A model generated the notes under the pieces. That model searched no databases and was not told the origin of the DNA. It was given only the letters and a program-made list of their open reading frames with translations. Shown here in pieces: positions 2,199 through 17,780 of a DNA stretch of 45,826 bases. The translations under genes were made by a program, and so were the position numbers. This stretch comes from Candidatus Heimdallarchaeota archaeon. GTDB lineage: Archaea; Asgardarchaeota; Wukongarchaeia; Wukongarchaeales; JBHIFL01. Numbering within the stretch: position 1 is the stretch's first letter; each line of letters begins with the position of its first letter. The DNA lies in the NCBI GenBank assembly GCA_046761065.1, contig JBHIFL010000033.1, forward strand, positions 1-45,826, written 5' to 3'.

Positions 2199-4286
2199 TT
2201 GAATCACTTACTCTGCGAATCAATTAAGAGAACAAACAAGGAAAAAATAAAATTGAACACAAGAAAGAGGATCCTGCAATCGGATAGTGAACACCATACA
2301 AAGTATGAACGCATAGTGACTCAACATAGGAATGATAACCAAAAAAAAAGACCACTCCCTCCCATTAGAACCGGTCATGATGTCTTAGATCAGTATCTTC
2401 CTACTCCTGAGGAGCTCGCTGAAATAAAACGGGTTCAAAAATTCATCTCCGAGCAGCTACAAGAATTACTGAACCGTTGGGCTATACGGGGGACTTTGGT
2501 TTTTACTGGCTCCACGGCTCTAGGGACTTTCCTCCAGGGCGATACCGATATTGACCTCTTTGTTGTCGTGGATGTCGACACAGTTGAAGAATTTAAACAC
2601 GTGTTTAATCGGTTTGCGAACCTCAAGTGGATCCAAGACCAATATATCAAGCATGGCCACGAGCCGGATCGGGAGGCGATGGTTCACCGACTTGCGATCT
2701 GGAGTGGAACTGTAAAACTAACCCAGACTAAAAGATACCACCTCGATCTAATTGTTCTACCACGTGTGGGGGGACATGAAACCCATTCCCGCTTTGAAAC
2801 CCTAAGACATGTAGAATTCTTCAGCCGGAACTTAACCGCAGCACAGAAACAGGATGTTGTACGACTCAAGGCGCTCTTCAAGCTGGGGGGGATTTATGGG
2901 GCCGACCAATGGGGTATAAAGGGAGTGGATTGTCAAACCCTCATCTATAGACACAAGACCATTGAGGGGGCCTTAAGCTTTCTTTCAACCTTAACCCCTA
3001 GTTCTCAGCTCCTAGATCCCAGTTATGAAGAAGTTCGAATTGAACGTGATCTTTTCGTGACAATTTTCCAATCTCCTCTGGCACAACCTCGGTTAAAACA
3101 GATTCGCGAGATTTCAACCAACTATCTTAAGAAAAGAGAACTCCCTCCCCCCTTCGATAAGGAAGAATGGACCGCCCACCAGGCCAAGACCCGCCACGTC
3201 GTCATTAGCCTCCCGTCGCAAGGTCCTGATCGGGCTGAAACCTTTACAAAAGCCGTGAGTGTGACAACTCATGCGCTAAACCAAGTCAAAGGAATGGTTG
3301 AGGAACTTAGCGACCTCCAGGCAGATATTGATGCTCGCCTATTCGAGCAAACGACCCTCATAAGCTTTAAGCTCCACGAGATCACTCCCGTCATCCAACG
3401 CTCCCTCGACAAGAGAAAGCTTGCCCCACGGCAAAAAGCTCGATCGATTGCAACGTTCAAACGAAATAGCAAACAGCGTGCCCTCCCACCATTAATCACT
3501 GGGATACAGATCGCCGAGGACCCTCAGTCGGTCACGGTCGTTTTTCAGAGGAACCCCGTGTTTGCCCACTTCCTAGCCCGAAGAATTGTCCAGACCATGC
3601 TTGAACGAAAAGGATTCAAACTAGAACGCTGGGTTGAACCCCCCTTGAACTTCCAAACCATCCAAAAGCACTTCTACATCGATCCACAGGTTGATGAAAC
3701 CGCCATCCTAACCGATCTGGAAAGGTATAATGATCTTAATCAAGGTTGGGGCGATAACAAGAAGCGTCTCGCACATACCTTCGAAGTTTACTATACCCTC
3801 GCTGTGTACCTCCGGCTCCCCCACTTGCTTGGGATTCATGAAACAACTGTAAAACAAACTCTTGACTATTTCAGTCAGAAGCTTGACGGGATTCCCAAAT
3901 GCATCCTCACCCAGATCACAGCTCTCTATCACACTTGGGGGGAACACCCTCCTCCAATTGGAGATGAACAGGATATCTCTTCCTCCAGAGCACCCCTCAT
4001 CCCGGGTCGCTTTTTTCACGAAACGCTTGGTTCAAAGCTCGGTCTCACCCCCCGCCAGCTTAATTATGTGACAACACTCCTCATAGCCTTTAGCCATTTG
4101 CCATTTGACCCCGAGCCACACCATTTGACCCGATCCACCCCCCAATTGGGTGCTGACTTTCCCAGCCTTCTACTGCTCGTAATTGCTGATCACGTGGTTT
4201 TGAAACACACCACCGTATTCACCCTTCAACGCTTGGCACAGGTTTTAGACCATTTTTTTGCCTCTTGCGCAGATCCTTACATGTAG
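2199..4286 (+). CDS. Divergent class I (archaeal) CCA-adding-enzyme-like nucleotidyltransferase fused to a degenerate HD-like domain
   Basis: Pol-beta motif VFTGSTALGTFLQGDTDIDLF. DVVRLKALFKLGGIYGA resembles the CCA neck (EVRLLKxFLKxxGIYGA). C-terminal LAHTFEV...TALYHTWG resembles EHTLxV...ALLHDIG. Probable start is the in-frame GTG at 2316. Confidence 0.7.
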   Translation: MNHLLCESIKRTNKEKIKLNTRKRILQSDSEHHTKYERIVTQHRNDNQKKRPLPPIRTGHDVLDQYLPTPEELAEIKRVQKFISEQLQELLNRWAIRGTLVFTGSTALGTFLQGDTDIDLFVVVDVDTVEEFKHVFNRFANLKWIQDQYIKHGHEPDREAMVHRLAIWSGTVKLTQTKRYHLDLIVLPRVGGHETHSRFETLRHVEFFSRNLTAAQKQDVVRLKALFKLGGIYGADQWGIKGVDCQTLIYRHKTIEGALSFLSTLTPSSQLLDPSYEEVRIERDLFVTIFQSPLAQPRLKQIREISTNYLKKRELPPPFDKEEWTAHQAKTRHVVISLPSQGPDRAETFTKAVSVTTHALNQVKGMVEELSDLQADIDARLFEQTTLISFKLHEITPVIQRSLDKRKLAPRQKARSIATFKRNSKQRALPPLITGIQIAEDPQSVTVVFQRNPVFAHFLARRIVQTMLERKGFKLERWVEPPLNFQTIQKHFYIDPQVDETAILTDLERYNDLNQGWGDNKKRLAHTFEVYYTLAVYLRLPHLLGIHETTVKQTLDYFSQKLDGIPKCILTQITALYHTWGEHPPPIGDEQDISSSRAPLIPGRFFHETLGSKLGLTPRQLNYVTTLLIAFSHLPFDPEPHHLTRSTPQLGADFPSLLLLVIADHVVLKHTTVFTLQRLAQVLDHFFASCADPYM

Positions 4287-4622
4287 TCTGATATAAAAAT
4301 TCCACTCGCATCCCCAACGTCGCGAATATCTTATTTTCATAAAACCAAAGGTGAAACAACCCTTCAAACAACACCCCACAACTTTCGTGTACACGTTCAC
4401 GAGCTGCTCAACCTTTGCCAATCCAAACGTTAATATTTGCCCCTTTGGGGACCCCTTGCCTTCCCCATGGCCGGTTCCCTGCCCCTCCCCTGGGGTTCTT
4501 TGCTCCCCCGCTCCCTTGGCACACCAGGATTCTCTTCCCCCTTCCCTTTCTTCGTCTCCACTGATTACTATTAGGAAATAACGAAAGGATCGGACATAGT
4601 GCCTTCCAGCATCTCATGTCCC

Positions 4623-6467
4623 TCATTCCCAGTAAAACTTATGCGAACGCTGGACTTCCTTCACGGCTTCCTCCACATACCATCGTGTCATCTCACTCCC
4701 CTTCCCTTCACTTAAGACCTCCCGCAGCCTGGCGATGACGGGGGAAGGATCTTCCAACCTTCCTCCGATTCTCCCTATGGCTTCTACTGCTATATTACAT
4801 ACCAAAACGGATTCGTCCTGCAGAACCTCCAGCAGTGCCGCCACCGCTCTCGATAATGATTCTAAATCCCATTCGACTGCTCCAAGGATCTCCGCCGCCC
4901 TCGCTCGGTCTTTCTCGGTCCCCCCCTTCAAAATATCCACCAGTGCCTCCATGATAACCGGGATGTCCTCTAACTCCAATTGCCTCCCCATCTCGCCGAG
5001 AATCCCTGTCACAAAGCTCCGTACCTCTTCGCCTCCCGCCTTCCACAGCTTGCGGAGTGTGGGGAGCACCTGCAACGGCTCCTCGAACTGCGATAGCATC
5101 CTCCCACATACCTCCGCCGCCCAGATCTCCCTCTCCGGTAGCCACTCCTCCACCTTTTCGACCCTCAGAGACTCTAACATGCTCCTGAGACCTTCTCCCC
5201 CTTTTGGTCGCTCTCTGAGCTTCTTTGGCACCCAATCCTTCTCCACCTCCTCTTCCCCCTCCAGTTTCTCCCGAAACTCCTGCACCATGGACTCGGCCTG
5301 GACCACGCCACCCAACTTGCAAATGACCACTGCACTCACCCACCCCACCACCCTTCCCTCCTCGCGACCTGTGTACAATAACCTCCTCCCCAGCTGCTCC
5401 ACTATCTCCATCGGATTCGCCAACCGCCCGCATAAGGCCTCCAGTACCTCCGCCGCACCCCACCGCGCCTCTGGGTAGCCATAGTCGTATATCAACGTCC
5501 ACAGTGTCGAGATGGCTGTAGAGGTATCCTCCACCTCCAGCACCTCCTCTTTCCTCTTAATATTCTCTGCAATCGCCCGCAGGAGGTCTCTCGCTACATA
5601 TGTGTAATAATGGTGGAAGATGCTCCCAATTCCCTCGCCATACTGTGCGATCATGAAGACGGGATCCTCGACTCCCTTCGCCATCTCCATGAGCCCCTCG
5701 ATCGCTTTTCTTTTGCACCATGTCTCCGTTGATCCGTCGAGGAATGTTTGGCTGTACCCAAAAATTCCGAGGTACATACCCACCACCTGCGCACGTGCCG
5801 CGGGATCCTTCGCTTTTGGCCCTAGCTTCACAAGACCTGCCAATCCCAACCCTGTCTTTCCTTCCTCTTCTTCTTGATCCCAAATTTTGCAAAACAATGG
5901 GACAAGCTCCGAAGGCTCCTTTATTCTATCCATACTTTTTACGACTATCCTCTCAAGGGCGAATGTTTCTAGCTCTGAATAATCAGGGTGCCTCTCGATT
6001 TCTTCGATCAGTACGGCTATCACCGGCTCGAGATCCTCCACCTCCTCACTCCTCCACGCCATCGCTCGCGCCACCCCTGCACGGACCCTCCCCCTCTCCT
6101 CTCTCAAGGCCGCTTGTAGGACGGGGATTGCCCCGGAGATGTCCTCTAACCCCTTCACCATCTCGATGAAGGCATGAATTTCATCACCTTCCACCTCCTC
6201 GTGCAGCATGGATAGTCGCACTGCCACCTTGCGCGCGGTTTCTGCTCGGGGGTCTCCCAGCTCCTCCCCTGCCTCCGCCATCCCCTCCAGCGCCCTCCAC
6301 ACCGCCCCTCTCACTTGCCAACTCTCGTCCTGTACCGCTCGCTGTAATGCCCTTACCACCTCCTTTCGATCCTCCAGCCGCTTTCCAATCTCGCCTAGAG
6401 CCAAGGCCGCGCCCCTTCGCCTCGTTTTCTCTCCCTTCTTTAACTCCTCAATCAGCTGGGTTATCAC
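4623..6467 (-). CDS. HEAT-repeat (PBS-lyase-like) alpha-solenoid protein
   Basis: Recurring D.S..VR..AA.ALG.IG motifs (RRGAALALGEIG, DESWQVRGAVWRAL, DRARAAEILG, DESVLVCNIAVEAIGRIG). A possible true start at 6599 is interrupted by TAA (see findings). Confidence 0.8.
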   Translation of the reverse strand: MITQLIEELKKGEKTRRRGAALALGEIGKRLEDRKEVVRALQRAVQDESWQVRGAVWRALEGMAEAGEELGDPRAETARKVAVRLSMLHEEVEGDEIHAFIEMVKGLEDISGAIPVLQAALREERGRVRAGVARAMAWRSEEVEDLEPVIAVLIEEIERHPDYSELETFALERIVVKSMDRIKEPSELVPLFCKIWDQEEEEGKTGLGLAGLVKLGPKAKDPAARAQVVGMYLGIFGYSQTFLDGSTETWCKRKAIEGLMEMAKGVEDPVFMIAQYGEGIGSIFHHYYTYVARDLLRAIAENIKRKEEVLEVEDTSTAISTLWTLIYDYGYPEARWGAAEVLEALCGRLANPMEIVEQLGRRLLYTGREEGRVVGWVSAVVICKLGGVVQAESMVQEFREKLEGEEEVEKDWVPKKLRERPKGGEGLRSMLESLRVEKVEEWLPEREIWAAEVCGRMLSQFEEPLQVLPTLRKLWKAGGEEVRSFVTGILGEMGRQLELEDIPVIMEALVDILKGGTEKDRARAAEILGAVEWDLESLSRAVAALLEVLQDESVLVCNIAVEAIGRIGGRLEDPSPVIARLREVLSEGKGSEMTRWYVEEAVKEVQRSHKFYWE

Positions 6468-7676
6468 GTCCTCGACGGTATTGTCCGGGCTTGTTAATTG
6501 GTCTAGAAGTGGTTTTAATGCTTTTCCTAGGTCCCGCCCACCTTCCGCTGCGTACGTTTAGATCCATTCCCGAAGTCTCCTCCGCTCCTCCTCGTTCACC
6601 AGATCACGCTCCTCCTAAGAAGGATGTGGCGCTCCTGAACCCATCACATGAAACCCCCACACCCACCGATACCTCGTTCACAACTCGCACTGTCCCCTAA
6701 AAAAGCTTTCGCTGCTTCCATGGCTCTCATATCTAGCTCCCATAGTCTTAAGGTATCGCCCTCGCTTGATCGCTCCCCCTTCCTTAGGCCGCAACGGACC
6801 CCCCTCGAACTGATGCGGGATGGTGATTTCCCCACTTCACGTCCCCCCTATCCCCTCACAGGTGTGTGGAGTCCCTCTCTCTTCTCGCCTATCCCTCCCT
6901 CCCCTCCCCTTTCCCTCTTTCTGTTGCCACCCTCGGAGGAACCGTCCAATCCTATGCCTGATTGTTGTCTGTCACCGTAACCCTCCTCCACCCCTAAAGC
7001 CTCGCGTATCATATCTTCATAGTACCACTGATACAGCAATCCTTCTATCAACGCCCCGCTACTTTCGCGTACAGATTAGCCACCTGCTCAACTTTCGCAA
7101 GCCCAAAACGCAAATGTTTGTACCTTCGGGGATACCTTGCCTCCCCCGTGGACGATCCCCTGCTTCTCCCCTGGGATTCTTCACTTCCATGCTCTCTTGC
7201 CAAGCCAGGATTCGCTTCCCCCCTTCTTTATTTTTGTCGCCTCCACTGAAACGCCGAAACCTTTATTAATCAATCCGCGGAGGATGGGAACGGAGGAGCG
7301 CCCGAAATAATATGTTCTTGTTTGGCGTTTCCTCCCTCCCTCCCCCTCAGTATCCAGGGGCGGGGGGGGAAGCAAAGCGAAGAGGGATTGGAGAAGGATT
7401 TTAAGCAATTGAGAGAGTAAGAGGGGGCCACATCTGCGGGGAAATATTCAGCAGAAAGGAAAGAGAATGGGAAGACGAGCCTAGCATTCAGTCCATCGTT
7501 TCCAGGGGTATCCCAGTCGAGTAGGACGCTGCATATTCTATTCCTTTACAATTCCCAATCGTTTGAACTTTACGTCCTCAATTCCTCTATGGAAACATCT
7601 GCTAATGTGCATTTATAAACGATTTGGGAAAATACCATTGAGAATGCAGCATTCATATAATGTGGTGTCATTTATT

Positions 7677-7744
7677 TTTATAAGCTTTGAACAGCACACA
7701 CTATTTCATTACTATAGGTATGTAATTCCTTTATAAGCTTTGAA
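7677..7744. repeat. 15-bp direct repeat TTTATAAGCTTTGAA x2 in an AT-rich intergenic region
   Basis: Exact copies at 7677-7691 and 7730-7744. Confidence 0.7.
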
Positions 7745-7886
7745 AACTGCAAACAAAAGAGTTTTATTGTGAAAAGGGGGTAAATTCAAGTTATTGTATC
7801 TACAATTGTTAGCGTTCATATCATCTCTTGCGTCGTCGAAAACGACAATAAAGCAACGTTAGACAGCAAAAACCGGAGGAATTGCG

Positions 7887-8756
7887 TTGGGGAAGGCAAG
7901 AAAGGATCGACTAAAGTTTGTTCGATGGATCATTCGATATGGAGGGAGAATTTACACAATGCTATTCGTTTTGATTCTCCTGGTATTCATCCTGACTTGG
8001 TGCGGCGCGTACCGCCAGTACGTTGGGGGTTGGGAGGTGTTACTCGTTTTGGTTGGGGGGGTCGTCTGTGTGGCACTTGATAGGCGCATCAGGGGGGTTC
8101 CATGGCATTGGCGGGGGCTACCCCTCGGGGACCACAAGGGCGTCATAGGTCTTTTTGACAGGCGTCCAAAAAATCGGTTGCTAATTTTATTCGGGCTCTT
8201 CATCGCCACAGGCGTGGTTGTCCACACAGTAAATATCCAGCCGATGGGGGGATGGATGCGGCAGTGGCTGTTCCCGTGGGGATTGATCCTCCTCGGGGTA
8301 ATTACAGCCGGAGTGTATCTGTGGCAGGGTTCCGACACGCTCTTTTCAAAGCAAACGAATCAATCGGGGGCATCCCCCTTTGGCGGGATCGTCTCAGGGG
8401 TATTTCTGGCACTAGGGCTTTCACTATGTTATCACTACCGATATCTGGATGATCCCTATTCCCTAGGGTGGGTGCTACTGCTCTGGGGTGTGTTGAGTGG
8501 GGTTGTGGCGTCTCAAGGCCCGACAAGGGGCGATGCATCAGACACCGATGCTCCGAGTACGAAGGAATGTACAGCCAAACCCACGACAAAAGGGCAATCT
8601 GATGGGAAAGCCAAGTTGATTGTGAGTCTGGCTGTGGGCTTGGTGGTGAGTGTAGCGAGCCACTCACAAAATGGTGCGCAGCTTACAAAACCAAAGGCGT
8701 TTCCTAACTATTATTCGTGTGGAGGACATCGATCAAGGTTCTCACAAATTTCATAA
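7887..8756 (+). CDS. Multi-pass membrane protein of unknown function, probably 3'-truncated
   Basis: About 7 hydrophobic segments and GGGAGG upstream of the TTG start. The last ~18 codons run antisense into the neighbouring NTase gene. Confidence 0.6.
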   Translation: MGKARKDRLKFVRWIIRYGGRIYTMLFVLILLVFILTWCGAYRQYVGGWEVLLVLVGGVVCVALDRRIRGVPWHWRGLPLGDHKGVIGLFDRRPKNRLLILFGLFIATGVVVHTVNIQPMGGWMRQWLFPWGLILLGVITAGVYLWQGSDTLFSKQTNQSGASPFGGIVSGVFLALGLSLCYHYRYLDDPYSLGWVLLLWGVLSGVVASQGPTRGDASDTDAPSTKECTAKPTTKGQSDGKAKLIVSLAVGLVVSVASHSQNGAQLTKPKAFPNYYSCGGHRSRFSQIS

Positions 8757-9444
8757 TGCCTCTTCTTTCAGAATGGGACAATCTTAAACCTGTGAGGCTG
8801 AACCACAATTTTTCTAACTCACTCTTTCTGATAAGATTTGCATAATTCCTAAGTTGAGAAATTATATGGCTCCTAAGACCCGATGCCTTGCATTGGTCTG
8901 ACAGAGTTTTTTTATCAACTTCGTCTCCTTTATCGATTATTAGAGATGTAATATCGACAATATCCTTTGTTCGCCCTCTTGGAATCAGCTTGAGTAAGAA
9001 CATGGGTTCAATCGCTGCTACTGGTCCGTCTACAGCAAAGGGTTCCGATTCTTCATAATATCCTTTCATAACTAGATTTCTAGCCTTTTCGAAGAATTCA
9101 TCGGTAACAGAAAAGGTAAATCCCGTAGAGATATCAAAGACTTCACCAACACTTATATGAAGGTCGATGTAACCATTGTCAAATTTTTTTCTTCCAGCAA
9201 CACCGAATTCAGTAGTTCGATAATCATATCCTAGGTTACGAAGTAGAGCCTTGAATCTACCTAAAGCTTCCCTTTTGGTCACTAGATCGATGTCCTTAGT
9301 AAACCTGTAACCTCTAGTGTAGGCTCTAACAGCATATCCACCTATCACAACTACCTGTATTCCCCATTTCGTTGCTTCTTTGCACAGCCTGTGAAGGTCT
9401 CGGAGGCTAGCAATCTCCACATCGATATCGCTCAGCATGCTCAC
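8704..9444 (-). CDS. AbiEii/DUF1814-like nucleotidyltransferase, putative type IV TA toxin
   Basis: VVVIGGYAVRAY...RFTKDIDLV (GG..A and T.DID motifs) plus LLKL...R.KD..D. Overlaps the upstream gene by 4 bp. Confidence 0.75.
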   Translation of the reverse strand: MSMLSDIDVEIASLRDLHRLCKEATKWGIQVVVIGGYAVRAYTRGYRFTKDIDLVTKREALGRFKALLRNLGYDYRTTEFGVAGRKKFDNGYIDLHISVGEVFDISTGFTFSVTDEFFEKARNLVMKGYYEESEPFAVDGPVAAIEPMFLLKLIPRGRTKDIVDITSLIIDKGDEVDKKTLSDQCKASGLRSHIISQLRNYANLIRKSELEKLWFSLTGLRLSHSERRGIMKFVRTLIDVLHTNNS

Positions 9445-10394
9445 CTTACGAGGTCCGTTACGATCTTTGAGATGAAGGCTTTAGAGAGAAGTATTCGAAT
9501 GTTCCACTTCTCTGATATAGCGGGGTAGTCTTCCAGGGCTTCTTCACTAAATGGACCTTTCTCAGATTGTTTGGGGAATGTTATTCTGTTCGAAACATCG
9601 GCGTTCTCATAAATCTCATTGATGAGATTGTTGGAAAACACTTCCCGTCCGGATTCAAAGTTTATCGTGTCAAGGCATGAGCCCAATTCTCTTAATAATC
9701 TACTTTGGCTCGCTCGATTGAGGAGATGCTTCCAATCTAAATCTTCCTTCTTAACTAGGAGGATTGCAATAGCGTCCGTTAAGCCGAATCTATCTTGATT
9801 TTCAAGACCTCTAACAACCACGGCTTCTGGTGACAAATATCTGGCCCCCTGAATAACAACACTATGACCCAGCACATCCTCAGTCAAAGTAGAATGGATA
9901 TGGATGTTCTCTTTAGCAGATTTTTCCGATGGTATATCGTCAATTGCAACTGCAGTGCTCCTCTCGACCAACAATGCAATCCATGTGTTAAGGTCTCTTT
10001 TTCTAACATAGATATCCATTTTGCCCGGTGTTGAATAGTGATGATGCTGATAAGCCGCATATGCATCGCCAATGACATAATCGAGGTGGGAAGCCCTAAG
10101 CTTATCCAAAACCTTACTGCTGATAGCTTTGTTCTGGATCCCAAAGGCTGTTATAGCGCTTTCAGGATCGATGAGTTTGAAAAGTCTTCTTCTGGGGTCA
10201 ATAGGGTCTCTTCTCGAAATCAAGAAGCCCCGATTCTTCAGCCGTGTCAATATATCTGATAAGGCCTTCTTGTCCTCTACTTCTAGCATTTCTTTCGCTT
10301 CATTGTAATCGAATATATTAGATCCCTTACGCAAGTAGATAATAGAGTAGCTTTTTGCCAACCAAGCTGGAATCCACCGCATCTCAACCACCAT
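9441..10394 (-). CDS. Winged-helix plus degenerate NTase-fold protein, putative AbiEi-like antitoxin/autorepressor
   Basis: N-terminal wHTH (LSDILTRLKNRGFLISRRDPIDPRRRLFKL), then YVIGDAYAAY..HY..PGKMDIYV. The start is placed at ATG 10394 (or 10382) because the upstream ORF-track extension is operator repeat sequence. Confidence 0.7.
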   Translation of the reverse strand: MVVEMRWIPAWLAKSYSIIYLRKGSNIFDYNEAKEMLEVEDKKALSDILTRLKNRGFLISRRDPIDPRRRLFKLIDPESAITAFGIQNKAISSKVLDKLRASHLDYVIGDAYAAYQHHHYSTPGKMDIYVRKRDLNTWIALLVERSTAVAIDDIPSEKSAKENIHIHSTLTEDVLGHSVVIQGARYLSPEAVVVRGLENQDRFGLTDAIAILLVKKEDLDWKHLLNRASQSRLLRELGSCLDTINFESGREVFSNNLINEIYENADVSNRITFPKQSEKGPFSEEALEDYPAISEKWNIRILLSKAFISKIVTDLVR

Positions 10395-10446
10395 AGTCAG
10401 GCTATTTACCTGACTATTTAAGATAGTCAGGCTATTTACCTGACTA
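10394..10446. promoter_or_regulatory. Two identical 23-bp palindromic operator-like sites TAGTCAGG-CTATTTA-CCTGACTA
   Basis: Copies at 10394-10416 and 10424-10446 (30-bp period). Each has perfect 8-bp inverted arms, and both lie between a TATA-like box and the start codon. Confidence 0.75.
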
Positions 10447-10460
10447 AAACGATACCACAC

Positions 10461-10476
10461 ATAAATATCTTTCCCT
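10461..10476 (-). promoter_or_regulatory. Putative BRE-TATA promoter of the TA operon
   Basis: The minus strand reads AGGGAAAGATATTTAT. A start site ~25 nt downstream would fall inside the distal operator. Confidence 0.5.
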
Positions 10477-10738
10477 TCCTCTAAATTGCCCTCTAAAGAG
10501 TTGTTGGTGAAGAAAATAAGTAATTTACTTTTCAGTAAATAATCTGGCTAGTTTTGCGCGCGCAGAAGGTTAACTTAAATAATTAATGTGAGCTCTGTAA
10601 CACTCTCCAGATGGAAATTAACGATTATTTACAGTTTTTTGGAGGCTAAGTCGCCCTCCTGCTGGAGATTTTTGAGGAAGCCGGGACAGCCATCACCCCG
10701 ACAAATAGGATATGTGAGGATTAATTACTCACATTGCG

Positions 10739-11077
10739 GATGGTCCTCCAGCCTTCTTCTGGAACCAGAAAGATCCCTTCAATGCCCTCCTTGCCATTGG
10801 GGATAAGATGTATGAACTCATTCCCCAGTAAGAGTACATCTGGGAAACTCATCAACTATCACCAGAACTGTTTACCAAAGAACGGTTGGAAGAAAAGATC
10901 ATTAAGAAAATAGAGAAGCTTGCCAAGCACTAGAAAGCCCGGGCTCAACAATAGGAAACTCCCGCTGTCGCCACGTATGTGCAGACGCGTCAGTTTATCC
11001 ACCTAGAAAAAGAACGCCGACGTTTAGTCAAGCAATGCACAAAACTAAAAAACGAGCAGCACGAACTCCTACACTAA
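10739..11077 (+). pseudogene. Degraded gene, possibly an IS110-family transposase remnant
   Basis: One frame with three internal stops reads KDPFNALLAI...RRRLVKQCTKLKNEQHELL, resembling the IS110 helix R..LV..RT.LKN.IH.LL. Confidence 0.35.
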
Positions 11078-11395
11078 TTACGAGACTCAAACATGTCGTT
11101 CTGGAGACATCATAACCCCCTAACCTCATAAATTTTTTCTCAAAAATTGGAAAGAAATTTATGAAAAAACTAACCACCACCAATCTGGCGCCTTTCAGAA
11201 GGCGTTGATCACAGTTTCTTTAGAAAGAAATTGGAAAAAGTAAATGCCTTCATTATTACTGAAGTCCAGCCTCCTAGGAACACACGGGGTATTGCACAGA
11301 GCAGTGCTTCCCACAAACATAGATTGCCTACTTACGCAAGCCCTCTACCCCCGCTCCGGAAGTCCTAGTTGGGGTGTCAGATCGAACTTCTTCCC

Positions 11396-11551
11396 GAGCC
11401 GACAGAGCATCCCAGCACGACCCCAGACACAGCAACGGACACTGCGACGACGGATACCCCCGCCGCTTTCATTCCAGGGTTTACTTTGGTAGAGTTGCTG
11501 CTTGCCCTTGCTTGCCTAGTTGTTCTGGCACGAAGGGTAACCAAGCGGTAG
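11396..11551 (+). pseudogene. Orphan 3' end of a surface-protein paralog (Thr-rich linker plus PGF-CTERM-like anchor)
   Basis: Near-identical in DNA and protein (TDTATTDTPAAFIPGFTLVEL.LALACLVVLARR) to the end of the 11747-15706 gene, with no upstream gene body. Confidence 0.75.
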
Positions 11552-11746
11552 GTCGGTCAATGGGGGTGAACGGGTGCGATGAGACACATTCGGCCATCCA
11601 AACCTCCGATGGCGGCTTGAATTCCGTACGGTTGCAGAAGGTTTTGCCCATCGTGGACATTTGCACTAAAATTAATTTATTGTATAAATCGTAACAACAT
11701 AATTGTTGGTTAATTTTATAAACTAATTTAATAAGGTGGCTTAAAA

Positions 11747-14700
11747 ATGAACAAGAGAAACTACGTCATAAGCGCGCTAATTATCTGGAGCATGCTTTAT
11801 AGCCTGGCGATCGGGCCGGGTGGGGGGCCGGGTGGGGCAATCCAAGCAGAGGGGGACCGAATCGTAGTGTTAGCCGATGATTGGCCAATATGCTCGGATA
11901 CGCCGTTTGAAATCGCGAATGAACCAACCGCTGAAGGGGATACGCAGTGGAATCGAACCTATGACGTCGTGGGGTTTGGTGCGGTCTGGACGGGGATCCA
12001 GACGGTGGATGGCGGCTTTGCGCTCGCCGGACACGCCTTTTCCTCCGGGACGGACTCCATCGACGCATGGTTGATGAAGACCGATGCCAGCGGAACCATG
12101 GAGTGGCAGCAGACCTATGGTGGCGCTAATTGGGATTTAGCCTACGCAATGATCCAGACGGCAGATGGTGGCTTTGCGCTTGCAGGGTGGACCGAGTCCT
12201 CCGGGACGAGCCACTCGGATTTCTGGCTGGTGAAGACTGATGCCCACGGGGAGATGGAGTGGCAGCAGACCTATGGTGGCTCTGAGGGTGATGTGGCTAA
12301 TGCGGTCATCCAAACGGTGGATGGTGGGTTCGCGCTGGCTGGCTACACCCGGTCTTTTGGGGCGGGCGGCAATGACGCGTGGCTGATGAAGACCAATGCC
12401 CATAGGGAGGTGGAGTGGCAGCAGACCTATGGCGGCGGGGCTGACGATGAAGCCTACGCGGTCATTCAGACAACGGATGGTGGATTTGCGCTCTTCTACG
12501 CGGGCGGAGCGGATAGCTGGTTGGTGAAGATCGATGCTCACGGCAACCAAGAATGGCAGCAGACCTATGATGGTTGGGTCCGGGCGGGGATCCAGACAGC
12601 GGATGGAGGGTTTGCGCTCGCTGGAGGAATTTCATCCTCCGGGGCGGGCCACTCGGACTTCTGGCTGGTGAAGACCGATGCCCACGGGGAGGTGGAGTGG
12701 GAGCAGACCTATGGCGGCGGTGAGGGTGATGTGCTACACGCGGTTATCCAGACGGCGGACGGTGGCTTTGCGCTCGCAGGGGACATTTGGTCCGGCGGAA
12801 AGTACAGTAGTCGAGCGGATGCGTGGCTGGTGAAGACCGATGCCCACGGGGAGATGGAGTGGCAGCAGATCTATAGCGGATCAAAGGGGCATTATGCCTC
12901 CGCGGTCATCCAGACAACGGATGGTGGGCTTGCCCTCGCGGGCTATACCTTCGCCACCTCCCAGTCCCCAGGACCTGGGGGCGCCTGGCTGGTGAAAACT
13001 TTTCTTCCGTGGCACCCCCGGGCCCCCATGCCCACCCCACGGGCCGATCTGGCGGTAGCGGTCGTGAATGAGCGGGTCTATGCGATTGGGGGCTTTAACG
13101 GAATCCAGAATCTGGCGACCATGGAGGAGTATGATCCCGCGACTGACACATGGCGTTCTCGAGCCCCTATGCCTACGGCTCGGGGTTGGCTGGCAGCAAC
13201 AGCAGTGAACGGAAAGATTTACGCGCTTGGGGGCTGGGATGGCACCAATTATCTATCAACTGTAGAGGAGTACGATCCCACGACTAACATTTGGCGATCC
13301 AGGGCCCCCATGCCAACTCATCGGTACGGCCTAGCTGTGGTGGCCGTCGGCGGGCGGATCTACGCGATTGGTGGCCAGAACGAAATCGCGGAGGGGTATC
13401 AAAAGACAGTAGAGGAGTACGATCCCGCGACCAACACTTGGCGCCCCCGAGCCGATATGGCGACCTGCCGGTATGGCTTAGCCGCGGGGGTCGTCCAGGG
13501 CCGGATCTATGCGCTTGGCGGCTTTAATGCAGCTAATAGGGCTATGAAGACAGTAGAAGAATATAATCCCATTCTCAACACCTGGCGCGGTGTGGCCGAT
13601 AAGCCGACAGCCCAAATTAGTTTGGCAGCGGGCGCCGTGGGTGGGCGGCTTTACGCGATCGGGGGCTTGGAAACCAATCCGTCCCCCGTGGAGGAATACG
13701 ATCCGCTCACCGACACGTGGGAGAGCCGAATTCCCTTGCCAACTCCACGTGCCGGACTGGCTGCCGCGGTGGTGCGGGGGCGGCTCTATGCGATTGGGGG
13801 ATATGATGGGAATCGGCGGCTTAGTACAGTAGAAGAGTACGATCCGCCTTTTTATGATACCGATGGGGATGGGTTCGCAGATGATGAGGAGTTACGCTAT
13901 GGCCGAGATCCATTAGTCCCTGAACCAGCCACGGAAACGGACACCGATGGGGATGGGCTCCCGGATATCGAAGAAGTTACCAAATATGGAACCAACCCGT
14001 GGGTTCCCGACATCGAAGCCGACACCGATGGGGATGGACTGACCAATGTGGCGGAGGTCGATCGATACAGGACTAACGCCACGGTTGCGGATACAGACCG
14101 GGATGGATTAGGAGATGGAGTGGAGGTACTCACGTACAAGACCAACCCCTTGGTCACGGACACTGATATGGATGACTTGACCGATGGGGAGGAGGTCACG
14201 ACCTACGAAACAAACCCTACGGTGGCCGATACTGATGGGGACGGACTGTTTGACGGCGAAGAGGTGCTCACGTACGAGACTAATCCCTTGGTCGTGGACA
14301 CCGATGAGGATACATATTCAGATGGGGCGGAGGTGGCCGCAGGAACCAATCCTCAGGATCCGGCAGAATACCCCAGCACGACCACGGGTACGGCAACGGA
14401 TACTGCGACGACGGATGCCCACGGAACGGTGGAGTGGCAGCAGACCTATGGCGGCGCTGAGGGTGATGCAGCTTATGCTGTCATCCAGACGACGGATGGT
14501 GGCTTTGCACTCGCTGGGTGGACTGAATCCTACGGGGCTGGTGATGCTGATTTCTATCTGGTGAAGACCGATGCCCACGGCACTATGGAGTGGCAGCAGA
14601 GATATGGCGGCGCTGAGTCTGAGTGGGCCCGCACGGGGATCCAGACGATGGATGGTGGGTTTGCGCTCGCTGGGTTCACCACTTCCTTCGGGGTGGGCTG

Positions 14701-15706
14701 GTATGACTTCTATTTGGTGAAAACCGATGCCCACGGCACTATGGAATGGCAGCAGACCTATGGCGGCGCTGGGGAAGAGTCAGCCCGGGCGGTGATCCAG
14801 ACAGCAGATGGTGGGTTTGTGCTCGCCGGGTTCACCACTTCCATCGGGGCGGGCGGTCGTGACGGTTGGCTGGTGAAGACGGATGCCCACGGAACGGTGG
14901 AGTGGAATCAGACCTATGGCGGCGCTGAGGGTGATGAGGCTTATGCTGTCATCCAAACGGCGGACGGCGGCTTTGCGCTCGCCGGAGTCACTTCGTCCTT
15001 CGGGACGGGTGATCCTGACATCTGGCTGGTGAAGACCAATGCTGGCGGGGAACTCCTTTGGACGCGGACCTATGGCGGCTCGGAGAATGATGTTGCATTC
15101 TCGGCCATCCAAATGGCGGACGGCGGCTTTGCACTCGCCGGCTACACTATGTCCTTCGGGACGGGTGATCCTGACATCTGGCTGGTAAAGACCGATATAT
15201 ATGGTGAGATGGATTGGCAGCGGACCTATGGTGGTGTGGGGTATGATGTGGCCTGGGCAATGATCCAGACGGCGGATAGTGGGTTTGCGCTCGCTGGGAA
15301 GACCGAAGGGAAGACTGCAGTGATATACCTGAGTGGTGATTTCTGGCTGGTGAAGACGGATGCCCACGGAACGGTGGAGTGGCAGCAGACCTATGGCGGC
15401 GCTGAGGGTAATCAGGCATACGCGGTCATCCAAACGGCGGACGACGGCTTTGCGCTCACCGGTGTTACAGAATCCAACGGAGCGGGTGGTCGTGACGCCT
15501 GGCTAGTGAAGACCATCCCGCCGGAAATTACGCCTCCCGAGCTTTCTGCAACCACCAGTACGACCACGGGTACGGTAACGGGTACGACAACGGATACTGC
15601 AACGACGGATACCCCCGCCGCTTTCATTCCAGGGTTTACCTTGGTCGAGTTGGTGCTTGCCCTTGCTTGTCTTGTTGTTCTGGCACGAAGGAAAACAAAA
15701 CAGTAG
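11747..15706 (+). CDS. Secreted mosaic surface protein: beta-propeller, 6 Kelch repeats, DTDGDG Ca-binding (TSP3-like) repeats, second beta-propeller, PGF-CTERM-like anchor
   Basis: Signal peptide; WQQTYGG...IQTADGGFALAG...WLVKTDAHG repeats; Kelch IYAIGG...VEEYDP..W repeats (~13010-13850); DTDGDGL.D..E repeats (~13855-14360); C-terminal PGF, TM helix and basic tail. Visibly more GC-rich than the core genes. Confidence 0.9.
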   Translation: MNKRNYVISALIIWSMLYSLAIGPGGGPGGAIQAEGDRIVVLADDWPICSDTPFEIANEPTAEGDTQWNRTYDVVGFGAVWTGIQTVDGGFALAGHAFSSGTDSIDAWLMKTDASGTMEWQQTYGGANWDLAYAMIQTADGGFALAGWTESSGTSHSDFWLVKTDAHGEMEWQQTYGGSEGDVANAVIQTVDGGFALAGYTRSFGAGGNDAWLMKTNAHREVEWQQTYGGGADDEAYAVIQTTDGGFALFYAGGADSWLVKIDAHGNQEWQQTYDGWVRAGIQTADGGFALAGGISSSGAGHSDFWLVKTDAHGEVEWEQTYGGGEGDVLHAVIQTADGGFALAGDIWSGGKYSSRADAWLVKTDAHGEMEWQQIYSGSKGHYASAVIQTTDGGLALAGYTFATSQSPGPGGAWLVKTFLPWHPRAPMPTPRADLAVAVVNERVYAIGGFNGIQNLATMEEYDPATDTWRSRAPMPTARGWLAATAVNGKIYALGGWDGTNYLSTVEEYDPTTNIWRSRAPMPTHRYGLAVVAVGGRIYAIGGQNEIAEGYQKTVEEYDPATNTWRPRADMATCRYGLAAGVVQGRIYALGGFNAANRAMKTVEEYNPILNTWRGVADKPTAQISLAAGAVGGRLYAIGGLETNPSPVEEYDPLTDTWESRIPLPTPRAGLAAAVVRGRLYAIGGYDGNRRLSTVEEYDPPFYDTDGDGFADDEELRYGRDPLVPEPATETDTDGDGLPDIEEVTKYGTNPWVPDIEADTDGDGLTNVAEVDRYRTNATVADTDRDGLGDGVEVLTYKTNPLVTDTDMDDLTDGEEVTTYETNPTVADTDGDGLFDGEEVLTYETNPLVVDTDEDTYSDGAEVAAGTNPQDPAEYPSTTTGTATDTATTDAHGTVEWQQTYGGAEGDAAYAVIQTTDGGFALAGWTESYGAGDADFYLVKTDAHGTMEWQQRYGGAESEWARTGIQTMDGGFALAGFTTSFGVGWYDFYLVKTDAHGTMEWQQTYGGAGEESARAVIQTADGGFVLAGFTTSIGAGGRDGWLVKTDAHGTVEWNQTYGGAEGDEAYAVIQTADGGFALAGVTSSFGTGDPDIWLVKTNAGGELLWTRTYGGSENDVAFSAIQMADGGFALAGYTMSFGTGDPDIWLVKTDIYGEMDWQRTYGGVGYDVAWAMIQTADSGFALAGKTEGKTAVIYLSGDFWLVKTDAHGTVEWQQTYGGAEGNQAYAVIQTADDGFALTGVTESNGAGGRDAWLVKTIPPEITPPELSATTSTTTGTVTGTTTDTATTDTPAAFIPGFTLVELVLALACLVVLARRKTKQ

Positions 15707-15775
15707 AGTCGATGGGACATAAGGCAATCCCTTCCCACCCACTTTAGAGGAGTTGGGGAAGGTATGAACGCATTC

Positions 15776-16219
15776 TTAGACATGATTGGGGTGTGCAAAT
15801 CGAATACACACACCTTTTGGTTTAACATCTAATAATTGGAGGAGATCGGCAATAAACGGCGCACGAACTGGTTCTTCACCCCAATATCTCTCGATTTGAC
15901 TAACCCACGTTTTGAAGGTGGGGTCCTCAAGGGAGAAGAGGAGAAAAATCCCAAATAACCGTACATGTTGGGATTCATCGTGAAGGAACGGGAAGAGTAC
16001 CGGCGCCATCTGCTCGACCGGTGCCTGTTTCAGCTGCGCCATCACATAAACCGCAATAAGGTCGACTAGCGGGATGGTCTCGGCGCGCTCGAGGTTGTGA
16101 ACGTCGATTTGGTGCTCATGGACAATGGTGGCTAGAACCGTCAAAACTGCCCTAACTCGATCGGATCCACTTGGAGAAACGCCAACTCGCGGCGTAGGGA
16201 GACGAGGAACTGCCCTCAT
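15776..16219 (-). CDS. Hypothetical protein with one HEAT-like motif
   Basis: 147-aa ATG ORF containing LFPFLHDESQHVRLFGIFLL. Confidence 0.45.
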   Translation of the reverse strand: MRAVPRLPTPRVGVSPSGSDRVRAVLTVLATIVHEHQIDVHNLERAETIPLVDLIAVYVMAQLKQAPVEQMAPVLFPFLHDESQHVRLFGIFLLFSLEDPTFKTWVSQIERYWGEEPVRAPFIADLLQLLDVKPKGVCIRFAHPNHV

Positions 16220-16992
16220 TATTACTGAAGAGCGACTTGAATCAACCGGATGAACTCCACATCGCTGACCCCTCCTGGTAAAAAATCAACGTTTATCCAC
16301 AAACCTACTGGGTCTCCACTCAAAATAGCAGGTCTAAAAGCGAGACGATAAATGAAAAAGCTGACACCGCAAAAATGAGCCTGCAAAAACAAAACCATAG
16401 ACGAGGATCAGTATACCTCATGAACCACTCTACTACCCACTTTCCTGTTTTAGACAACAATCTTCCCTTCCCTTACTATTATTGGTTGGGGACACCGGTT
16501 AAGGGAAGATTTGTGCATTGTATTTCTTATATGTTCTCCACCACTTAAACAAGCTGTAGAACGCGAATGCCAAAAATGCCAAAGCAATTAGTGACCCTGT
16601 TTTAGAGGAAGTGAAATGCAGAACCCAAGCTCTAAAAAGATGAACAAGCCAACTGTGAGTTGCCACCTTCTTGTCTCGTGAAAAAACCCCGTATGCTTTT
16701 CTCGGACATGCTTTCTATCAAACCAGGGCAATTGTTCTCCGCAAACCGGACAACGTGGCATGAGGAATCATCATCAAATACATTGGAAATAAAACTATTA
16801 AAATTTTATGCAGGCAACGCCCCATATTTTGAGCTATTCATTCTCTTCCGTCCGATTTGTAAATCTCGAATTAATTGCTCTGATGGCAATTGTAGGGAAG
16901 CTCAACACTTTGCCCATTGCGGTAACGAAACTACTCCAATAACTTTTTAATGGGGCCTGAGGAGGGAACGTGGAGTAAAGGACGGAAAGCTC

Positions 16993-17510
16993 TTGCGATT
17001 TATGGTTGGCTATGACATTAACGAGTTCAAGAGATACTACAGAACGCTTAGAGATTTTCGTGATTACTTCAAAACGCGTGGACAGCTAAATATTAATGTT
17101 GAAGAGCTCGGTGCTGCAGAGGAAGCTCTAATCAGGAGAGACCCTATTCACCTCATTATTTGGAAAAAGAACGATAAGATCATTGGTCATGCAATCTGGC
17201 ATGAAATGAGCACGGATGAACACCAGAAGGGAAACCTTAGAGACGAAGAAGACCGGAAGATACTTAGAAGACTAATTGGAGGGAAAAAACCAACATTGTT
17301 GAGCTTCATGAAGTCTGACTGAAGACGGAGTATAGAGGGAGAAGGTATGGGAAAACATTCTTTAAATTCTTTGAGGAGTTTATCAAAAGCCGAGGGTATG
17401 CCGCAATTGTGTACTATACCGACAATCCTACGACCATAGCTCATGCAGAAAGCGAGGGTACACAGAAGCCATTCTCAAAAAAAGAATTGGCATGTCTTCT
17501 GTTTAAACTG
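16993..17510 (+). pseudogene. GNAT acetyltransferase pseudogene
   Basis: After a frameshift near the A-run at 17284-17289, another frame reads NIVELHEV*LKTEYRGRRYGKTFF..FEEFIKSRGY (GNAT motif A), with TGA at 17316-17318. The end coordinate is approximate. Confidence 0.65.
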
Positions 17511-17780
17511 CGTAGCAAGATGATCCCGTTCACATCTGAGCTCTTTCCCTGGGAATAGCCAATCAACAAGTGAAAATTCCCCTCAAGAACTATCAGGCAG
17601 ATCATGGAGGGGGATGGTCTCAACCGTACTTGAAAAAATCCCTTGGGTGAGGGAGTACTAGGAAACGGTCAAGTTCTACATGTTCATTGAATTTCAAGAT
17701 ATTGACCTGAAAAGGTGGTGTGAGAGGTGCATTGAAAGAATGCTTTAAAATGTCGAAGGGAGAGTTTTTACCGTGATTTT

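Follow-up and report, generated by a model that had tools for sequence, protein, structure and literature searches.

An open reading frame of 695 codons, beginning with TTG, occupies positions 2199 to 4286 of the forward strand of the window, the term used here for the whole stretch of 45,826 nucleotides that was analyzed. This extent is given by the list of open reading frames and its translation, and it is unlikely to be the extent of the protein. The homologs P0003–P0007 start where residues ∼26–40 of the frame align, and these N-termini suggest that the true start is probably the GTG codon at 2316, which would yield a protein of 656 amino acids. The gene caller's version (P0002) begins at TTG 2253 and has 677 amino acids. 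Residue numbers below are those of the 695-codon frame, whose features are as follows.

2199..4286, + strand: maximal open reading frame, TTG start
2316..4286, + strand: probable coding sequence, 656 amino acids plus stop, from GTG 2316
2376..3080, + strand: class I CCA-type head and neck domains (residues 60–294)
2508..2561, + strand: catalytic motif G104-S105 ... D117-I-D119, with two of the three metal carboxylates
2646..2762, + strand: remodeled beta-turn region, then the strand with D183, the third carboxylate (aligned by MAFFT L-INS-i to 12 canonical CCA1 sequences)
2793..2942, + strand: triphosphate-binding elements, with T201/H204 (in FETLRH) and K224 and Y233 (in LK...IYGAD) kept
3009..3080, + strand: remodeled neck end, LLDPSYEEVRIERDLF then TIFQSPL
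3081..3623, + strand: middle region (residues 295–475)
3624..4283, + strand: degenerate HD domain (residues 476–695)
3930..3935, + strand: former HD dyad, now H578-T579 (in ALYHTWG), located by column comparison with 14 intact HD proteins

The motifs quoted in the initial annotation are all present in the translation. These are GSTALGTFLQGDTDIDLF (residues 104–121), FETLRH (199–204), GIKGVDCQTL (239–248), LAHTFEV (524–530), and ALYHTWG (575–581).

The protein belongs to a tiny family of six full-length proteins and three fragments, the members of which are 48–76% identical overall. The genome, which comes from an uncultured Asgard archaeon, is a single MAG of its lineage, 91.5% complete and 8.2% contaminated, and no further genome of the lineage was found among 400 Asgard genomes or in a contig collection covering 185,579 species. 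Two conserved genes lie upstream (51–635 and 975–1904). These adjoin cca in none of 26 other Asgard loci, and therefore synteny says nothing about orthology. The conserved neighbors are housekeeping genes, with no defense operon among them. AbiE and Kelch genes are present downstream in the window and are missing from the orthologous loci L030 and L031.

Class I head and neck domains

Judged from its sequence, the product of 2199–4286 is a class I (archaeal) CCA-type nucleotidyltransferase of a non-canonical kind, and on this point the initial annotation was correct. The Pfam model NTP_transf_2 matches the protein with an E value of 5.7e-7, and the archaeal CCA model TIGR03671 (cca_archaeal) matches with an E value of 1.4e-18. 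The score of the latter match is 66.9 bits against an equivalog cut-off of 281.3 bits, and it is contributed by two stretches only (model positions 4–74 and 134–220). When the family was compared with 23 Asgard CCA1 sequences by hhalign, residues 60–314 aligned with a probability of 98.9%. The AF2 model, which has pLDDT values of ∼80–90 across the head and neck, can be superimposed on the A. fulgidus enzyme AfCCA with a Z score of 21.7 and an rmsd of 2.6 for 228 aligned residues, spanning residues 16–288 of the model and 1–262 of the AfCCA chain. This likeness to class I CCA enzymes far exceeds chance. The class II head and RNA-binding neck models (PF01743 and PF12627) do not match the protein.

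The region combines a pol-beta head, including the GS and DxD elements and the third carboxylate, with a neck of class I fold. The G104-S105 ... D117-I-D119 motif is invariant in seven of seven family members and pairs with GS...E59-x-D61 of AfCCA, and D183 is also invariant in the family. The same is true of T201, H204, K224, and Y233, which align with AfCCA T130/H133, K152, and Y161, where the AfCCA numbering is our own mapping from the alignments.

Other motifs of class I enzymes have been rewritten. The YAEHPY beta-turn of these enzymes contacts the primer and tracks its 3′ end. The initial annotation reported that this turn is absent, and the motif is indeed not there, but its place is not simply empty. 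Instead, the family carries an invariant I-K-H-G-x-x-P segment together with ∼15–17 extra residues. The segment reads IKHG(H/N)(E/A)P in the family and IKHGHEP in this protein. Similarly, DRTPFH has become FETLRH and GFSGY has become GIKGV.

An additional change, which the initial annotation had missed, is located at the end of the neck. The Arg224 loop of AfCCA (DPVDxxRNVA) falls opposite a gap of ∼10 residues in two automatic alignments, one made by hhalign and the other by MAFFT L-INS-i, and the loop has probably been deleted in the family. A manual alternative alignment pairs the invariant R283-D-L-F with R-N-V-A. R283 and R298 are candidates for a residue taking the place of Arg224. Arg224 is part of the template formed by RNA and protein that serves CTP and ATP, and its mutation in AfCCA reduces the addition of C74 and C75 (PMC3925840). 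Since the loop is deleted in both automatic alignments, the nucleotide specificity of the family may differ.

The middle region

Residues 295–475 match the class I body and tail domains in size and position. Within the family, the mean column identity of this region is 71%, and invariant residues of basic or polar character abound (RSLDKRKL, NSKQRAxPPLI). An exhaustive profile search of 1.84 billion representative proteins recovered family members only, and comparison of the region with CCA1 by hhalign gave a probability below 1%. The corresponding part of the AF2 model has pLDDT values below 50. Some structural alignments run on into the body of AfCCA, reaching residue 414 of the model and 335 of the chain, with low confidence. 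The model suggests that an RRM-like body domain is probably present at the position equivalent to that in AfCCA, and the middle region as a whole may represent the body and tail in this low-confidence prediction.

A degenerate HD domain at the C terminus

The C-terminal ∼220 residues have an HD fold in which the H...HD...H...H...D metal ligands have been lost. By hhalign, this domain aligns with intact HDIG proteins with a probability of 98.5% (E 2e-15) and with the HD/body-tail region of class II enzymes with a probability of 86.7% (E 4e-6). The protein has no direct Pfam match to PF01966 at E ≤1, and the link runs via an intermediate profile: An HDIG family bridges the two ends, with an E value of 2e-15 to this protein and 1e-17 to 3wfo. 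A direct HMM of the domain found nothing in the PDB, and the ESM Atlas gave no feature-based match and structure TM scores of ≤0.35.

Prediction of the fold of this domain by AF2 gave an HD-like structure with a pLDDT of 79 and a pTM of 0.80. This prediction should be read with caution, as nine rows of the 30-row input alignment came from class II HD segments. The top 17 Foldseek matches to this model are the structures 3wfo–3wfs. In a wide structure search (VIA), the best PDB match is 3wfo_A (residues 240–447, Z 13.2), and HD-superfamily proteins account for nearly all of the remaining matches listed. These results agree with the initial annotation, which proposed that the extension at the C terminus is an HD domain in degenerate form, of a type that elsewhere is fused to class II CCA enzymes.

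The former dyad reads H-T, H-K, or H-N, its Asp having been lost from eight of eight sequences in the family. Also gone from all eight is the motif IV His; the motif I His is retained in five of seven, and the last Asp in three of eight. E. coli Cca has phosphatase and cyclic-phosphodiesterase activities. Because the metal ligands have been lost, activities of this type are not expected here.

In sequence comparisons, the domain comes closest to archaeal HDIG proteins that stand free and to the body/tail of class II enzymes, which is itself derived from an HD domain. An origin from the class II enzymes of Asgard archaea was considered and rejected, since hhalign comparisons with two Asgard CCA2 groups gave probabilities of ≤3%. 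In class II enzymes, the HD-type body/tail region binds tRNA at the acceptor and T helices (PMC3925840; PMC4810234). In the beta subunit of the heterotetrameric GlyRS of bacteria (GlyRS-beta), a dead HD domain whose dyad is Ser-Lys aids tRNA aminoacylation and acceptor-arm binding (PMC8464048). By analogy, the HD domain of the present protein may bind RNA. Conserved residues on its surface include K567, Q572, and H578.

Loss of the canonical cca gene

The initial annotation described the gene as a paralog, a description that the rest of the genome does not support. A search of the genome with TIGR03671 recovers this gene only, and PF01743 and PF12627 have no match anywhere. Likewise, tblastn searches of the genome with 23 Asgard CCA1, 70 class II, and 10 Asgard CCA2 proteins find this gene only. 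Thus, neither a canonical class I nor a class II cca was found by HMM or tblastn in the 91.5%-complete genome. Because of this level of completeness, a second enzyme could be encoded in the missing part, and the gene is the only cca of its genome within that limit, which is one of the points that the initial annotation had named as counting against its reading. The other 27 matches to PF01909 in the genome are open frames of at most 362 amino acids. The two longest other nucleotidyltransferases, encoded in tandem beside a pterin-binding gene (361 and 352 amino acids), are without CCA-type domains and are not CCA-like.

In 13 Asgard loci, including those of both sister-family genomes, ligT lies directly upstream of cca. 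The single ligT of this genome (C17:6389–6976) is followed by Hsp20 where cca would be expected. The 58-kb contig that carries it contains no Ns and no remnant of cca. The canonical gene has therefore been lost from the ancestral ligT–cca operon, and the unbroken contig establishes that the loss is real. Because CCA1 is present and CCA2 absent in the sister family, an additional gene transfer would have to be assumed for this genome to have a second enzyme.

CCA is not encoded by five of the 12 tRNA genes, among them the Ser gene at C2:35208–35308, and a CCA-adding activity is therefore needed. Compensation by genome-encoded CCA was also considered and rejected: CCA is encoded in seven of 12 tRNA genes here and in a similar proportion (17 of 30) in the sister genomes, which retain canonical CCA1.

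In a tree of the head and neck, the stem branch of the family is ∼3–4 changes per site long, and evolution within the family is slow thereafter. The tree leaves the point of attachment among Asgard CCA1 unfixed and so cannot separate an ortholog from a paralog. All three parts of the protein are under purifying selection, with dN/dS values of 0.12–0.25 for the head and neck, 0.15 for the middle region, and 0.22–0.55 for the HD domain.

Proposed function of the hybrid protein

CCA-adding enzymes are a textbook case of two classes that differ in architecture yet form one and the same product. Class I enzymes use an RNA–protein template and have alpha/beta body and tail domains; class II enzymes use a protein template and have a helical body and tail derived from an HD domain. 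We favor the hypothesis, to which we assign a probability of about 0.55, that the gene described here encodes the only CCA-adding enzyme of its lineage, in which a class I core is joined to a dead HD module of class II type that serves for binding. This hypothesis is favored by the fold and profile matches to class I enzymes, the invariant ligands, the lack of another candidate, the real loss of the canonical gene, the need for CCA addition, the selection acting on the protein, and the homology of its HD domain to the tRNA-binding part of class II enzymes, together with the GlyRS-beta example. If it is true, then this protein would supply the CCA-adding activity of the genome, and parts of the two classes can mix. 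The remodeled, HD-fused copy probably still does the essential job of CCA addition, in a new way.

A plausible route to such an enzyme is that a descendant of the archaeal class I gene departed from the ligT–cca operon, underwent a single burst of divergence, and acquired an HD domain of class II CCA type at its C terminus. In the resulting enzyme, the class I head and neck would add nucleotides to the tRNA 3′ end in a template-independent manner. D117, D119, and D183 would hold two Mg2+ ions, and S105, T201, H204, K224, and Y233 would hold the triphosphate. The middle region and the dead HD domain would hold the acceptor and T-arm of the tRNA, as do the helical body/tail in class II enzymes and the dead HD domain in GlyRS-beta. 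A more ambitious and more tentative proposal, which we put at somewhat below even odds, is that the hybrid constitutes a third way to make tRNA CCA ends in Asgard archaea. Under this proposal, a class I core without the Arg224 loop works with a dead class II-type HD domain, acquired from a free-standing archaeal HDIG gene, that holds the tRNA, and the canonical enzyme has been fully replaced in the lineage.

Several observations stand against the sole-enzyme hypothesis. The family is extremely divergent, its beta-turn has been rewritten, and its Arg224 loop is deleted in the two automatic alignments. In addition, a class I enzyme of Heimdallarchaeum with an Arg-to-Asn change is inactive in vitro (preprint 10.64898/2026.05.29.728689), and the identity of the body and tail comes from a low-confidence model.

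Some of these features could also reflect a change of function. The nucleotidyltransferase might have been neofunctionalized so that it still adds nucleotides to RNA 3′ ends but differs in specificity or acts on a different substrate (for example, adding only A or only C, or tagging or tailing other RNAs), with CCA being added by the product of a gene that is unassembled or unrecognizable. We consider this unlikely, but it is the alternative that survives best. A long stem followed by slow evolution within a family is the usual sign of such a change, and the rewritten turn, the probable deletion of the Arg224 loop, and the gain of a new C-terminal domain are consistent with it. Retention of class I enzymes that are inactive for CCA addition also has a precedent (10.64898/2026.05.29.728689). 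However, this scenario requires a second enzyme for which the HMM and tblastn searches of the 91.5%-complete genome yielded no candidate, and which would have been obtained by an extra gene transfer given that the sister family has only CCA1. Moreover, the canonical cca is gone from a conserved operon on an intact contig, and ∼40% of the tRNA genes still need CCA addition.

The protein could instead be a catalytically silent class I relic that is kept for binding or regulation, as in Heimdallarchaeaceae, where such a relic can persist (preprint 10.64898/2026.05.29.728689). The Arg224 loop is probably missing and the HD domain is certainly dead, as this explanation would have it. Yet the metal carboxylates and triphosphate ligands are invariant among proteins that are 48–76% identical, which is unexpected for an inactive enzyme, and in Heimdallarchaeaceae a class II enzyme took over, whereas none was found here. 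This explanation is accordingly improbable.

A nucleotide second-messenger synthase resembling OAS, cGAS, or CD-NTases, as the initial annotation suggested, is very improbable: The pol-beta fold is common to OAS and CD-NTases (Z 15–17) and the NCBIfam model CBASS_cyclase_b matches weakly (E 0.006), but AfCCA scores 4–6 Z units higher, the CBASS match reaches 16 bits against a cut-off of 200, the C-terminal domain belongs to the class II type that binds tRNA, and the genes conserved alongside are housekeeping genes with no effector or defense gene among them, AbiE and Kelch being absent from L030 and L031.

The hypothesis that the hybrid is the sole CCA-adding enzyme of its lineage bears on the known distribution of these enzymes. 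A survey of Asgard archaea distinguished lineages that keep CCA1, that keep both CCA1 and CCA2, or that have swapped to CCA2 (10.64898/2026.05.29.728689). In that work, CCA1 was identified from tblastn matches to AfCCA at E ≤1e-10, and genomes with no detected enzyme were dropped (10.64898/2026.05.29.728689). The family described here matches AfCCA by phmmer with an E value of only ∼0.1 and would therefore escape that survey; it would add a fourth state to the three already described. If the Arg224 loop is truly gone, then the family also offers a natural experiment in nucleotide selection.

Comparison with known systems

The closest well-studied counterpart of the catalytic part is AfCCA (PDB 1r89, 4x4p; TIGR03671), which shares with it the head and neck fold, the GS and DxD elements, the third carboxylate, and the T/H, K, and Y ligands. 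Unlike AfCCA, the present protein has a rewritten beta-turn, the FETLRH and GIKGV variants, and a probable loss of the Arg224 loop. Its body and tail are not recognizable by sequence, and it bears an extra HD domain of 220 residues. Unlike canonical class I cca genes, this gene lies outside the ligT–cca operon.

Class II enzymes, such as those of the E. coli Cca type (PRK10885) and the CC-adding enzyme of Aquifex aeolicus (3wfo–3wfs), have an HD/body-tail region homologous to the C-terminal domain. In contrast to these enzymes, the catalytic head and neck of the present protein are of class I, and its HD metal ligands have been lost.

The inactive class I enzyme “Heim12” of Heimdallarchaeaceae is another Asgard class I protein with a changed nucleotide-selecting arginine and with insertions and deletions (10.64898/2026.05.29.728689). 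The class I proteins of that group score ∼210–230 bits with TIGR03671 over their full length, whereas the match here is 67 bits. Furthermore, they are without the HD domain that is fused to the present protein, and an active class II enzyme is present alongside them, whereas no class II enzyme was found in this genome.

OAS, cGAS, and CD-NTases share the pol-beta nucleotidyltransferase fold, but their structural matches (Z 15–17) fall 4–6 Z units under that of AfCCA.

The last comparison is with GlyRS-beta, which has body and tail domains like those of class I CCA enzymes together with an HD domain that has lost its dyad (PMC8464048). It is part of an aminoacyl-tRNA synthetase and differs in having neither a nucleotidyltransferase head nor a neck, and it was not among the sequence matches of the exhaustive profile search. 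A dead HD domain that serves as a tRNA-binding part beside domains of class I CCA type nonetheless has a precedent in GlyRS-beta.

The CCA-like gene and its family

The CCA-like gene is a single open frame of 695 codons beginning with TTG (window 2199–4286, forward strand), and every motif quoted in the initial annotation was recovered in its place in this frame. Among ∼15 billion public proteins, the family numbers six full-length homologues and three fragments. The homologues share 48–76% identity with the CCA-like protein, and one is labeled “Candidatus Hodarchaeota archaeon” at NCBI. Their N termini line up with residues ∼26–40 of the open frame, and therefore GTG 2316 is the likely start, yielding a protein of 656 aa. 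No other members were found in 400 Asgard genomes or, besides the present genome, in 185,579 species genomes. The family stem in the tree is long (∼3–4 changes per site) and the inner branches are short (0.05–0.36), which indicates a single burst of change followed by constraint.

A class I CCA-type core

The N-terminal half of the protein is a class I CCA-type core. Pfam NTP_transf_2 matches it (E = 5.7e-7), whereas the second CCA domain, PF09249, reaches 0.16 at best. The archaeal cca model TIGR03671 gives E = 1.4e-18, with 66.9 bits versus a cut-off of 281.3, and phmmer with the Archaeoglobus fulgidus enzyme (AfCCA) gives only E ∼0.1. Residues 60–314 align to 23 Asgard class I proteins at 98.9% probability (hhalign). 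An AF2 model of the 656-aa form is confident over residues 20–285, and among PDB entries it comes closest to AfCCA structures (Z 21.7, rmsd 2.6, 228 residues aligned). Family-invariant residues (G104-S105, D117, D119, D183, T201, H204, K224, and Y233) align with the residues that bind metal and triphosphate in AfCCA. In the CCA-like protein, the canonical DRTPFH reads FETLRH and GFSGY reads GIKGV.

The middle region (295–475) is second only to the head in conservation, with a mean column identity of 71%, a dN/dS of 0.15, and an abundance of invariant Lys, Arg, Gln, and Asn. Neither hhalign against class I enzymes nor a profile search of 1.84 billion representative proteins finds relatives of it outside the family. 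It is as large as the AfCCA body and tail together, and structural alignments of low confidence reach the AfCCA body domain, ending at model residue 414 and chain residue 335. We infer that it may be a body/tail-like RNA-binding region.

A degenerate, class II-type HD domain

Beyond the family, a profile of residues 295–695 finds five free-standing proteins of ∼200–290 aa among the 1.84 billion (E = 1e-7 to 4e-4). All five pass Pfam HD, and at least two lie on archaeal-looking contigs (PolB with intein, NAC, A-type ATPase, TrmB). The altered HD domain proposed in the initial annotation is borne out: hhalign of the C-terminal domain against these HDIG proteins gives 98.5% (E = 2.2e-15, 166 columns), and the intact-HD profile run back on the genome has its best match in the window at 3747–4082 (E = 1e-6).

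The HDIG proteins are in turn closest to the HD regions found in class II CCA/poly(A) enzymes. Within the PDB, the HDIG profile matches only 3wfo–3wfs (E = 1e-17, residues 241–430), and 3WFR is the Aquifex CC-adding enzyme. It also matches dozens of PF01743+PF12627+PF01966 proteins, TIGR02692, and the HD domain of GlnD. Compared directly with 70 class II enzymes, the C-terminal domain scores 86.7% (E = 4e-6) with motifs in register. An AF2 model from an enriched alignment (pLDDT 79, pTM 0.80) has 3wfo–3wfs as all of its top 17 Foldseek matches, the next dropping to probability 0.14. In a VIA-align search of 48,161 chains, the model matches 3wfo_A best (Z 13.2 over 176 aligned residues, chain 240–447), and the matches that come next, of Z ≤ 10.2, are nearly all HD-superfamily proteins; because the folding alignment contained class II segments, this rank of 3wfo above other HD proteins is partly circular, although the sequence evidence is not.

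The dyad Asp (H-T/K/N) and the motif IV His are each absent from all eight family sequences, the motif I His is retained in five of seven, and the last HD-motif Asp in three of eight. The dN/dS of the HD part is 0.22–0.55, which argues that the domain is retained as a non-enzyme. Judged by these sequences, the C-terminal 220 residues form a class II-type HD domain that is dead.

No other cca gene is found in the genome

The initial annotation regarded the gene as a paralog. We see no sign of this, as no other class I or class II cca was found in the 91.5%-complete genome (4.42 Mb, 234 contigs, 8.2% contaminated). TIGR03671 has no second match, PF01743 and PF12627 have none, and tblastn with 23 Asgard class I, 70 class II, and 10 Asgard class II proteins finds nothing outside the CCA-like gene.

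The GTDB class comprises three species, and the two sisters carry canonical class I enzymes (390–401 bits), with no class II enzyme found in either. A LigT/ThpR 2H-phosphoesterase gene lies immediately upstream of cca in both sisters and at 11 other Asgard loci. The genome keeps the block order LonB, methyltransferase, tRNase-Z-like, LigT on contig C17 (5764–11849; compared locus L078, 9711–11620). There, ligT is followed by Hsp20, with no Ns and no cca remnant, and therefore the canonical cca has truly been lost from its ancestral ligT-adjacent position.

CCA addition is still required, as five of the 12 tRNA genes lack CCA directly after them; CCA is encoded by 7/12, a share no different from that of the sister genomes (17/30).

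Several side observations were made. The ligT(thpR)-cca pair is conserved across these 13 Asgard loci, which represent at least seven families, and the pairing is also known from Pyrococcus. The 4.4-Mb genome yields only 12 tRNA genes above the Rfam threshold, most with introns (e.g., C41:5075–5198, C22:42500–42631), versus 22–24 in the sister genomes; thus, many are unassembled or too interrupted for detection. Tandem genes on contig C50 (4048–7778; 361 and 352 aa) adjoin a pterin-binding DUF4346/DUF6513 gene; both have a weak NTP_transf_2 match in their interior, and they were rejected as unrelated to CCA addition. In genome G078 (locus L018), the class I cca looks canonical and lies downstream of ligT, and no class II match is found, whereas 19 of 22 members of its family, f21, carry class II cca, mostly in two copies. 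The G078 gene clusters, with 100% support, with the class I gene of a different family (G109) and may reflect contamination or transfer.

Genomic neighborhood

A divergent gene pair upstream (51–635, reverse; 975–1904, forward) is shared by the window and the orthologous loci L030 and L031 at 60–86% identity, with no Pfam match. Downstream, ∼13 kb (4300–17780) separates the CCA-like gene from folE2/queD and contains:

4623–6467, reverse strand: HEAT-repeat protein
8704–10460, reverse strand: AbiEii-type nucleotidyltransferase and partner gene
11747–15706, forward strand: Kelch/TSP3-repeat protein, 1319 aa, with a weak JAB-like toxin match

This segment has GC up to 0.53–0.60 and is absent from L030, the closest orthologous locus, where folE2 directly follows the CCA-like gene; it is therefore probably an inserted island. 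Against the 75%-identical L030 orthologue, pS is 0.19 in the head and neck (2376–3140), 0.48 in the middle, and 0.37 in the HD part. The low value suggests nucleotide-level constraint or recent exchange of that segment.

Possible functions

We favor, with a probability of roughly 55%, the reading that this protein is the only CCA-adding enzyme of its lineage, in which a dead class II-type HD module would hold tRNA beside a class I catalytic core. The body and tail of class II enzymes bind the acceptor and T helices of tRNA (PMC3925840).

An RNA nucleotidyltransferase with changed specificity is a possible but distinctly less probable alternative. Compared with canonical class I enzymes, YAEHPY is replaced in the family by IKHG(H/N)(E/A)P plus ∼15–17 added residues. 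The DPVDxxRNVA loop holds Arg224, whose pairing partners are N3 of CTP and N1 of ATP (PMC3925840). Alignment by hhalign and by MAFFT L-INS-i alike leaves this loop out of the family, setting TIFQSP against LIVVDP. The sister-lineage alignment places SYEEVRIERDLF against FYEYLKVPLDLF, and this supports loss of the loop. In an alternative manual alignment, R283 pairs with Arg224 and the arginine would be retained.

It is improbable that the protein is a silent relic, which would resemble the inactive Heimdallarchaeum class I enzyme (10.64898/2026.05.29.728689). A signalling synthase is very unlikely, with OAS (Z 16.8) and Cid1 and CD-NTases (∼16) ranking below AfCCA in the structural search, as do NF90/NF45 (18.6) and poly(A) polymerases (17.6).

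The 2026 survey of Asgard CCA enzymes would have overlooked this family: it searched by tblastn with AfCCA at a cut-off of 1e-10 and left out genomes without a detected enzyme (10.64898/2026.05.29.728689). Our literature search found no paper on a class I CCA enzyme fused to an HD domain. A precedent for the proposed HD module is GlyRS-beta, in which a dead HD domain adjoins class I body/tail-like domains (PMC8464048).
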